Shown here: positions 18,447 through 20,184 of the stretch, piece by piece
How positions within the stretch are numbered: position 1 is the stretch's first letter
How the letters are laid out: the number at the start of each line of letters is the position of its first letter
DNA from: Eledone cirrhosa
Lineage: Eukaryota
Length of the DNA: 64,000 nt
Direction: 5' to 3'
Assembly: GCA_964016885.1 (NCBI GenBank)
Contig: OZ024743.1
Coordinates: 60,078,001 to 60,142,000 of the forward strand
The notes under the pieces: model-generated
The model's database searches: none
What the model was told of the DNA's origin: nothing
Seen by the model: only the letters and a program-made list of their open reading frames with translations
Position numbers and translations under genes: made by a program

Positions 18447-19228
18447 GCCTGAATTCAATAAATGTAGTTTTAGAATATTAATAATAATATTCGATTCATT
18501 TGTACTGTGTTACTGATCGGCCTGATTTGCATATTAGCAGACTGGCTGATAGTCAGATCTGCATATTAGCAGGACCACTGATCAGCCAGATCTGCATATC
18601 AGCAGATTGGCCAGTCGGTTTTCTGTATACGAGCGATAAATGGCCGGCTTTGCCAAATTCAAATAAAAAAAGAAAATTTAGCTCTAAATGGTTGAAGACA
18701 ATAAATGCAATTATACAAACAAGCCTCAATTGTATACCCATATCAGTAGAATGAACCCTTCATTGTTGCTCTTGCATGCGAACAGAACTGCAGACACTAA
18801 ATTTCTGGGTATCACCCTTCATCAGTAGAGCCCACTGTTCACCTGTCAGAGCTAGTGAAAATATATGCTATTTTCAAAAAATACACAGGGACTGATCAGC
18901 CTGATTTGCATATTAGCAGACTGGCTGATCAGTCAGATCTGCATATTAGCAGATCCACTGATCAGCCAGATTTGCATATCAGCAGACTGCCGAGTCAGTT
19001 TCCTGTGTACGAGCGATAAATGATGAAGGGTGATACACAGAAACATTAGTGTCTGCAGTTCTGTTCGCATGCCAACACAAGAGCAAGAATGAAGAGTTCA
19101 TTCTACTGACATGTCTATAACATTGAGGCTTGTTTGCATAATTGCAAACGAATCGAATGTTATTATTAATATTCGAAAAACTCAGATTACATTTGTTGTA
19201 TTCAGCCATGTAGAGCGAAATTTTCTTT
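18447..19228. mobile_element. Family B: ~380-bp tandem unit with octamer blocks and an HHR, plus an inverted segment
   Basis: The octamer block repeats at ~18512 and ~18891. 19021-19150 is the reverse complement of ~18700-18824; (TA)n flanks. Confidence 0.85.
18786..18830 (-). ncRNA. Hammerhead motif, family B
   Basis: Minus strand reads ctcta-CTGATGA-a-gggt-gat-accc-a-GAAA-tttagtg-TC-tgcagtt. Stems I and III are imperfect in this copy; the consensus across copies is aactgca/tgcagtt with ca..tg in stem III. Confidence 0.65.
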
Positions 19229-19292
19229 ATATATATATATATATATATATATATATATATATATATATATATATATATATATATATATATAG

Positions 19293-19387
19293 TAGACAAC
19301 CTCTGAAAGAATCAACTTCACATTTACCTCACAACAAAATACCAAATTATACTATCTTCATATGTACATTCATTCAGAGGTTGTCTA
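19293..19387. mobile_element. 95-bp mini-MITE with ~19-bp TIRs (other copies at 21897-21991 and partial at ~22630)
   Basis: tagacaacctctgaaagaa ... ttcattcagaggttgtcta, sitting in (TA)n. Confidence 0.7.
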
Positions 19388-19714
19388 CATATATATATAT
19401 ATATGTATATATATTTGAATTTAATATATATATATATATATATATATATATATATATATATATATATAAATGTAAGTATGCATGTATACGTACATACATA
19501 TATGTATACAGACGTACAGTAGCATGCACATATATATATATATATACATATATACATACATACATATGCATACAGGTACACATACATATATGCACGTATC
19601 AGTTTAGCGGCGCTAACGTCGCTTTGTTCGTTTGTAAACAAACTGAACAGCCTGAATTTATGCCATACGGTGTTAAGGCAACCACGTCACCTTTTTGTTC
19701 AACACTGACACAGG

Positions 19715-19759
19715 AACGATGTACTAGTTTCAAGCTTGTTAGCTATCATCAGCACCGTT
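19715..19759 (-). ncRNA. Minimal type I hammerhead, family A
   Basis: aacggtg-CTGATGA-t-agct-aaca-agct-t-GAAA-ctag-TA-catcgtt, with palindromic ACTAGT at stem/loop III. Confidence 0.9.
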
Positions 19760-20184
19760 TACCCATCTGCCAGATAGTTGAACGTTAGAAAGTATATACT
19801 TTCCTTATGAAAATTAACGGCTGAGCAGCCTAATTTGCATATTGAGTGAGTTAAATCGGTCAGGCATACCGAAAACGATAAATTGAAACAAAATGAAAAC
19901 GAAATTTCATTTCTCACTCTTAGTATGGCACTTACTTAAATGTAAGTATGCATGTATGCGTACATACATATATGTATACAGACGTACAGTAGCATGCACA
20001 TATATATATATATATACATATATACATACATACATATGCATACAGGTACACATACATATATGCACGTATCAGTTTAGCGGCGCTAACGTCGCTTTGTTCG
20101 TTTGTAAACAAACTGAACAGCCTGAATTTATGCCATACGGTGTTAAGGCAACCACGTCACCTTTTTGTTCAACACTGACACAGG

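Follow-up and report, generated by a model that had tools for sequence, protein, structure and literature searches.

Newt satellite 2 was reportedly described by Coats, Zhang and Epstein in 1994. Its octamer is a distal element that works with a vertebrate PSE, and in vertebrates, the newt included, the octamer of the DSE lies about 200-250 nt upstream of the start. The hammerhead satellite of schistosomes has a promoter of the intragenic Pol III kind, with an A box and a B box, and not a PSE-TATA promoter. According to the accessible text of PMC2220036, newt satellite 2 is a tandem type I hammerhead repeat that is transcribed by Pol II from an internal snRNA-type promoter, and the schistosome satellite is likewise a hammerhead repeat with an internal promoter of its own; both resemble in this the two repeat families, A and B, that we describe here, and newt satellite 2 is a precedent for their retrozyme promoters. 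Metazoan non-LTR retrozymes, as presented in the accessible parts of PMC7229834 and of a preprint (bioRxiv 10.64898/2026.07.22.740005), consist of short repeats in tandem that code for no protein and contain type I hammerheads, as A and B do, and it has been proposed that they are moved by Penelope-like elements (PMC7229834). The hammerheads in the pLTRs of Penelope-like elements share with A and B a minimal form, a palindromic helix III, tandem or inverted insertions and microsatellite targets (accessible parts of PMC4209133 and PMC8557442), and hammerheads with a palindromic stem III are cut as dimers (PMC4209133). A 2020 review states, in its accessible sections, that metazoan retrozymes seem to lack promoters (PMC7761336), and it assumes transcription by read-through because none had been seen. 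A term search did not find 'promoter' in the accessible text of the retrozyme preprint, nor in PMC2837043 and PMC6155905, and the repeat annotation of Octopus vulgaris (PMC13282606) gave no match for hammerhead, ribozyme or promoter. A search of the literature outside subscription papers and supplements returned nothing on snRNA-type promoters of invertebrate retrozymes or on the U6 promoter of the host. Animal retrozymes are highly expressed, with retrozyme RNA known from mussel, coral and axolotl, and the newt promoter stood nearly alone.

Here we analysed a 64-kb window (the whole stretch of DNA, C4:60078001-60142000, of an AT-rich animal host genome of 3.0 Gb, probably octopus-like judging from its repeats), in which several families of minimal type I hammerheads were found and named A, A2, B, C and D (Table 1). 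The units of A and B contain hammerhead motifs and promoter elements, and these match the host snRNA genes in both sequence and geometry. At the level of sequence, there is strong evidence for a built-in promoter of the snRNA type, and A and B are probably non-coding hammerhead retrozymes with a host snRNA-type core promoter in each unit, likely to be self-transcribing. The predicted promoter of A and B consists of TATGCAAATNAG..TCAG and then TATA, just upstream of the ribozyme. Because these host small-RNA promoter elements directly precede the predicted hammerhead, the repeats are likely to have their own transcription and not to depend on read-through. Such putative promoter elements accompany a predicted self-cutting hammerhead in short repeats that number in the tens of thousands across this genome.

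Table 1. Features of families A, A2 and B in the window (positions counted from its first letter)
Feature	Position	Strand	Remarks
Family A retrozyme array	19467..21834		Units of ~470 nt in head-to-tail order on both sides of an inversion (20679/20680); flanked by (TA)n tracts
Family A proximal promoter element	19820..19841	-	Octamer 19833-19840 and TCAGC box (CAG 19821-19823)
Family A TATA box	19793..19798	-	42 nt past octamer start
Family A predicted transcription start	19768	-	Junction of C and AG at TATA+30; 16 nt ahead of catalytic core
Family A minimal type I hammerhead	19715..19759	-	Core starts 19752; predicted cut between 19722 and 19721
Second A promoter and hammerhead module	20185..20311	-	Octamer 20303-20310, core 20222
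Third A module	20926..21052	+	Octamer 20927-20934, core 21015
Fourth A module	21396..21522	+	Octamer 21397-21404, core 21485
Family B insertion	18442..19228		Copies of a circularly permuted unit of ~440 nt, rearranged and in part inverted; flanked by (TA)n tracts
Family B triplicated proximal element	18890..18989	-	Three 33-bp repeats; octamers 18970-18977 and 18904-18911, a variant between them
Family B TATA-like box CATATA	18862..18867	-	44 nt past octamer in this copy; typically 43
Family B type I hammerhead, damaged here	18784..18833	-	Core starts 18825
Older family B copy	374..969	+	Decayed octamers 451, 484 and 517; mutated core 609
Subfamily A2 inverted pair	40590..40870		Octamers 40700-40707 (-) and 40758-40765 (+); gap of 72 through an 8-nt deletion past TATA
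Older A2 copy	44408..44963	-	Core 44528; one-change octamer at gap 80

Family A consists of tandem units of 455-547 nt, and all four of its modules in the window are intact. A structure scan showed an intact minimal type I hammerhead with a stem I of 7 bp, a stem II of 4 bp and a palindromic stem III, and with the host U6-type matrix the proximal element reached 20.3 bits, at a background fraction of 6e-6. A perfect octamer was present in 17 of 20 distinct A/A2 copies (picked without regard to the octamer, two of them being those of the window itself), 12 times at a gap of 80, and three copies were cut upstream. When contigs from four unclassified runs were compared with A, none of the 18 listed variants fell in the octamer, CAG, TATA or +1, an outcome that chance would give in about one case in three and that carries no weight here. 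A lookup of the data sets that contain family A listed none of RNA, a result with no bearing on its expression. The units of family B, of about 438 nt, are permuted with head-to-tail junctions, and no two-hammerhead dimer was present in the loci examined. All three B ribozymes of the window are damaged: the one at 18825 has altered stems and was missed by the structure scan, the one at ~19020 is cut at an inversion, and the core at 609 is mutated. Intact hammerheads were found by the same scan among the copies outside the window. Only the last of the three 33-bp repeats of B has a TATA at the right distance. The octamer is kept in 27 of 34 B copies, with a mismatch of 0.028 compared to 0.028-0.056 in the flanks, and it is not clearly better kept than these, as would be expected if copies decay after insertion. 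The arrays of both families hold only low-complexity reading frames and no protein coding, and a Penelope-like ORF (RT/EN fragments) was nearby at 1 of 30 loci for A and 3 of 30 for B. In an Rfam scan of the window, the 150 matches listed of 180 included no hammerhead and were only microsatellite-driven miRNA matches. Minimum free energy folds of single hammerheads gave z-scores of -0.8 to -1.1 for three of them and -4.0 for an intact B copy, values that are uninformative for a dimeric ribozyme.

Several other elements are present in the window. A family D hammerhead (42150-42520, core 42314, plus strand) has its promoter part inverted directly upstream, and a hammerhead-like motif with an altered core and a long stem III (34798-34850) has a relative in locus L351 near a TATGCAAATGAG. 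The element at 3905-8230 is a coding element between inverted arms, with an RT-like frame (6364-7707, minus) and an endonuclease-like frame (5897-6268, minus); it contains family C hammerheads at 3905 (minus) and 8185 (plus), with TATA present and the octamer absent. We take the window ORF, and the RT and GIY-YIG fragments in general, to be Penelope-like on the basis of familiar motifs; no Pfam family matched the ORF, and an Atlas search led only to hypothetical and HTH_animal clusters. An inverted element with a GIY-YIG-like frame (33298-33828) is located at 32400-34340 and occurs in at least 150 copies of 93-100% identity, with open frames of up to 741 aa in other copies; its arms contain four more octamers, none with a TATA or hammerhead at the module spacing. 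Four tandem units of ~795 nt (8314-11459) each include a long (GAA)n tract, and broken LINE-type frames (endonuclease PF03372, RT PF00078) are found at 49081-50060, 51910-55290 and 61271-62428.

The ATGCAAAT octamers of the original prediction, all three on the minus strand, were recovered at their positions in A, B and A2 (Table 1). The window contains 19 ATGCAAAT sites compared to 5.6 +/- 2.2 in shuffles, and repeat copies are responsible for much of the excess. The octamer-to-core (CTGANGA) gap is 80 in family A (core 19752), 78 in family B (core 18825) and 72 in the 40.7-kb copy (core 40627). A conserved octamer-ribozyme spacing of about 80 nt was not supported, as gaps range from 72 to 92 across units (79, 91 and 92 in other families), and the agreement of A and B near 80 is partly accidental. 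The commonest gap in family B is 85 (15 of 29 B motifs, at loci picked on the ribozyme region alone), and the alignment shows that the B copy of the window is a deletion variant with a short deletion and a 1-nt insertion. The near-constant distance is rather that from octamer to TATA, 41-43 nt. The common motif also extends beyond the octamer: it reads TATGCAAAT-N-AG-..-TCA(G/C), followed by TATA 41-43 nt from the octamer start, and takes the form TATGCAAAT(T/C)AGGC.G.TCAG(C/T) in A and B, with TATA 42 or 43 nt past the octamer start.

The promoters of the host were collected from ncRNA genes by Rfam family, with Rfam model starts as +1. Seven of the eight U6atac loci, the U6 loci L084 and L085 and six array copies with an insertion behind TATA were left out as likely retrocopies or disrupted genes. 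In U6, U6atac, MRP and tRNA-Sec genes, the octamer or a one-change variant opens the proximal element TATGCAAATNAG at -76 to -79. This applies to all seven lineages (three of U6, namely two single genes and one array, U6atac, MRP and two of tRNA-Sec), five of which have the perfect octamer. Their element reads ATG(C/G)(A/T)AAT and then (T/G)AG, with TATA at -30/-31 and G at +1, and the octamer-to-TATA distance is 46-49 nt in 7/7. The octamer is absent from all 15 U1/U2/U4/U5/U12 promoter lineages. These have YCAG at -54 to -57 (15/15), and most have a TATA-like box near -30 and AATTAAA near -90; +1 is A in U1, U2, U4 and U12, and the U5 model starts vary. TATA boxes are also known from the Pol II snRNA genes of plants, like the TATA-like boxes of these Pol II-type genes. 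7SK and RNase P have a CAG box 31-32 nt before TATA, 5-6 nt farther than in U1/U2, and no octamer, and U3 and SRP have neither CAG box nor octamer. As these four lack it, the octamer is not needed for all type 3 genes; its presence in U6-type genes at -76 to -79 and its absence from U1/U2-type genes indicate that here it is a proximal element of U6-type genes. In the U6 array on C19, six loci examined (L077, L078, L080-L083) have a SINE-like insertion of ~190 nt between TATA and +1, and this insertion resembles a repeat at 26620-27036 of the window.

Comparison of the repeats with these promoters, the check suggested with the original prediction, gave a positive match in sequence and geometry. 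Promoter matrices were built from 5 and 15 host sequences. All 13 repeat representatives scored 16-20 bits on the U6-type matrix (background at most 1.2e-5). A and B share the proximal TATGCAAATNAG with the U6-type genes but not the 46-49-nt spacing or the G at +1, the spacing being 42 in A and 43 in B and the predicted +1 an A. With the U1/U2-type genes they share a YCAG box about 25-26 nt before TATA (TCAGC at 25 in A, background 0.007; TCAGT at 26 in B, background 0.0005) and the +1 A. The CAG-box match is modest, with background fractions of 0.035 in D and 0.058 in E beside that of A. Scores on the full Pol II matrix, which included RNase P, whose spacing proved longer, were poor (A 0.010, B 0.021, E 0.33). 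AATTAAA at about -90 and the distal TTACCTCCCTT are absent from A and B, and the hybrid short geometry of these two families was present in none of the host genes examined. It had been proposed that the octamer is a distal POU site, as in a DSE. The distal element of the host is a different sequence, TTA(C/T)(C/T)TCCCTT, present at -257 to -288 in 14 of the 20 promoters checked; none of the units of A, B, D or E has it. The octamer is in the proximal place, about 72 nt ahead of the predicted start in the repeats and not 200-250 nt ahead as in a distal placement. It is likely that the octamer is itself the PSE that was missed earlier, or directly adjoins it. An internal snRNA-like promoter next to the ribozyme thus survives to the extent that snRNA-type elements matching the host adjoin the hammerhead; the DSE role, the fixed distance of about 80 nt and the presence in two independent families are not supported.

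This last point concerns the kinship of A and B. A direct A-B alignment gave a match of 22 nt only, and both align to family G (A-G 67% over 226 nt, E 2e-13; B-G 71% over 124 nt, E 1e-9), which makes them distant relatives and not independent, dissimilar families. Since A, B, D and E are related through G, their common element points to selective retention of something inherited, not to convergence, and because of the shared ancestry the families are not independent trials.

Genome-wide, exact short-spaced octamer-TATA pairs numbered 23,634, compared to 214 in the reversed control, a count that reflects amplification and not independent events. An unbiased sample of 120 evenly spaced 10-kb stretches (1.2 Mb), scanned for structure blind to the octamer, yielded 66 hammerhead motifs, assigned to 8 families except for 2 motifs. 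Four of the eight have a perfect octamer 50-110 nt upstream (13/14 motifs in A/A2, 1/1 in B, 1/1 in D, 3/4 in E; background about 0.002 per interval of this length), and it was not found at this distance in the other four (F 0/28, C 0/12 and two others 0/2 each). In an octamer-anchored, ungapped comparison of A, B, D and E, identity dropped from 1.00 for the octamer to 0.60 at +8..+20, and to 0.35 and 0.29 for the spacer and the upstream flank. All four have TATA at 41-43 nt past the octamer, compared to 8 of 89 other octamers. When eight units from six families were aligned, TATGCAAAT, a G, a T, CA, ATATA, AG at the predicted start and the ribozyme core were invariant. The short class comprises A, A2, B, D, D2, E, G, J, K1 and K2, with 41-43 nt from octamer to TATA and CA(G/C) at +17 in 9/10; families G, J, K, D2, H and I were found via the octamer itself. 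Its CAG-to-TATA distance is 24-26 nt compared to about 25-26 nt in U1/U2/U4/U5/U12. An A is present at TATA+30/31 in all ten short-class representatives and a G at TATA+30 in all three U6-spaced ones, which mirrors the two host classes. In an Rfam Hammerhead_1 search, 30 of the 30 best-matching loci examined (L211-L240) belonged to one further family, with no perfect octamer upstream.

Pairs with U6 geometry gave 519 matches genome-wide compared to 47 in the control. About 20 of 30 loci examined belong to an old, circularly permuted hammerhead family, H, and three to a family I. Representatives of H and I show the exact U6 geometry, with 47-48 nt from octamer to TATA and a pyrimidine-G step at +77. 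They have a weak CAG-like box 25 nt before TATA, with scores mostly below 0 bits. In 13 of 18 copies of family H a run of T5-T10 directly follows the ribozyme, although the family is circularly permuted. The U6-spaced matches were also considered as tRNA or known ncRNA genes, which was rejected (0 tRNAs in 26 loci, 0 Rfam matches in 19); most of them are old hammerhead repeats. Family F, unrelated to A and B, forms very homogeneous hammerhead arrays of 310 nt without octamer (L165:5753-9200, L312), in which the host distal element stands right behind the cut site (-257 from the next start), followed by AACCAGT, a proximal box of the U1/U2/U5 type, and TATA. Its full-matrix background is 1e-4, and the pattern gave 14,867 matches compared to 16 in the control, 99 of 100 matches listed being F. 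On this pattern, F carries a predicted full U1/U2-type promoter. The distal element of F is also part of its extended stem I, so that base pairing in the RNA may help to preserve it.

For A and B, Pol II appears somewhat the likelier polymerase and Pol III the less likely. The box, its spacing to TATA and the predicted +1 A would favour Pol II, as they are those of U1/U2 and the spacing is 5 nt shorter than in U6; the octamer itself would favour Pol III. A further question is the nature of the octamer. It could be a genuine POU/Oct site for an activator, with a separate PSE of low conservation directly downstream, which is compatible with a promoter in the units and which we consider the most probable of the alternatives, though less likely than not. 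The octamer matches the POU consensus perfectly, the human H1 RNA gene has a compact Oct-plus-PSE promoter, family B triples the octamer at a 33-bp spacing as in an enhancer, and the octamer-TATA distance differs between the classes, with the CAG-like box of H and I placed 25 nt before TATA. However, that box scores low, the octamer position is fixed within 3 nt in seven host promoters, and conservation reaches the NAG and TCA past the octamer, as in a PSE of ~21 bp with a conserved 5' half (accessible part of PMC1761439). Somewhat less probable is a real promoter in A and B that is of the U6 type and transcribed by Pol III, the 5-nt shorter spacing being tolerated. In the host, the octamer is confined to genes of the Pol III type, the related H and I have the U6 spacing and a +1 G, and the T runs of A units do not exceed 4, host terminators being seen mostly as T6 or longer. 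Against this, 7/7 host octamer promoters have a spacing of 46-49 nt compared to 41-43 nt in the repeats, and the TCA(G/C) box is at the U1/U2 position with a predicted +1 A. B units contain T6 and T5 and E units T5 twice, a weak argument, as T runs are undecisive when the U6-spaced family H has them in most copies.

It is quite unlikely that the motif is an inherited relic or an RNA or priming element in units transcribed by read-through, as in the general retrozyme model. The common ancestry of A, B, D, E and G, the lack of excess octamer conservation among B copies, the spread of several hammerhead families without octamer and the view of the review (PMC7761336, accessible sections) that metazoan retrozymes seem to be without promoters would all agree with it. 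However, the octamer, TCA, TATA and AG are invariant while the spacers are near random identity, the match to host promoters includes both sequence and geometry, and the unrelated family F carries the other host promoter type. Chance in AT-rich DNA, where ATGCAAAT is common (116 sites in 1.2 Mb), is refuted as the sole cause by a 12-nt match with TATA at a fixed spacing in several families and by counts about 100-fold over the control, and has almost no probability left.

Under the preferred reading of A and B as retrozymes with a built-in snRNA-type promoter, SNAPc and TBP would bind the promoter element, and the RNA would start at a pyrimidine-A step about 15-28 nt before the catalytic core. 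The transcript would cross the promoter of the next unit, and one hammerhead after another would cleave it, those with a palindromic stem III acting as dimers. The resulting monomer, which would hold its own promoter, could then circularise, and a Penelope-like reverse transcriptase would copy it back into (TA)n sites, a mobilisation that the unit architecture of A and B appears to fit. With the monomer holding its own promoter, an upstream promoter would survive retrotransposition, and this shows a way for a tandem unit with a ribozyme to carry one along. More speculatively, and we regard this as doubtful, host snRNA promoters may have been captured at least twice, the U6 type by the H/I and A/B/D/E/G lineages and the U1/U2 type by F, after which the A/B lineage would have gone over from Pol III to Pol II through the loss of about 5 bp ahead of TATA and the gain of TCAG. 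If this is true, a hybrid promoter used by no host gene would be present in more than 20,000 copies competing for SNAPc, and SNAPc promoters would drive the expression of retrozymes in animals generally. The proposed promoter is resolved to single bases, and both its start and its polymerase are predicted, which makes the question directly testable. A by-product is the grammar of the host snRNA promoters, including natural U6 promoters that are useful for guide-RNA expression.

Compared to the metazoan non-LTR retrozymes of PMC7229834 and the preprint, for which no promoter is described, A and B, known here from their sequence, would add one. Compared to the pLTR hammerheads of Penelope-like elements, A and B have no ORF, and the hammerheads of the coding element in the window (3905, 8185) are without octamer. 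Like those of insects, the host snRNA promoters are bipartite; in insects the 5' half of the PSE is conserved and the 3' half, at positions 19-20, sets the polymerase (accessible part of PMC1761439). The TCAG box of the repeats takes positions 18-21 in a count from the T before the octamer. The sequence differs between insects and this host, whose Pol II and Pol III genes have hardly any recognisable PSE sequence in common. In newt satellite 2 the octamer is distal, whereas here it is proximal, joined to TATA and matches the U6-type genes of the host, and several promoter architectures coexist in this one genome.
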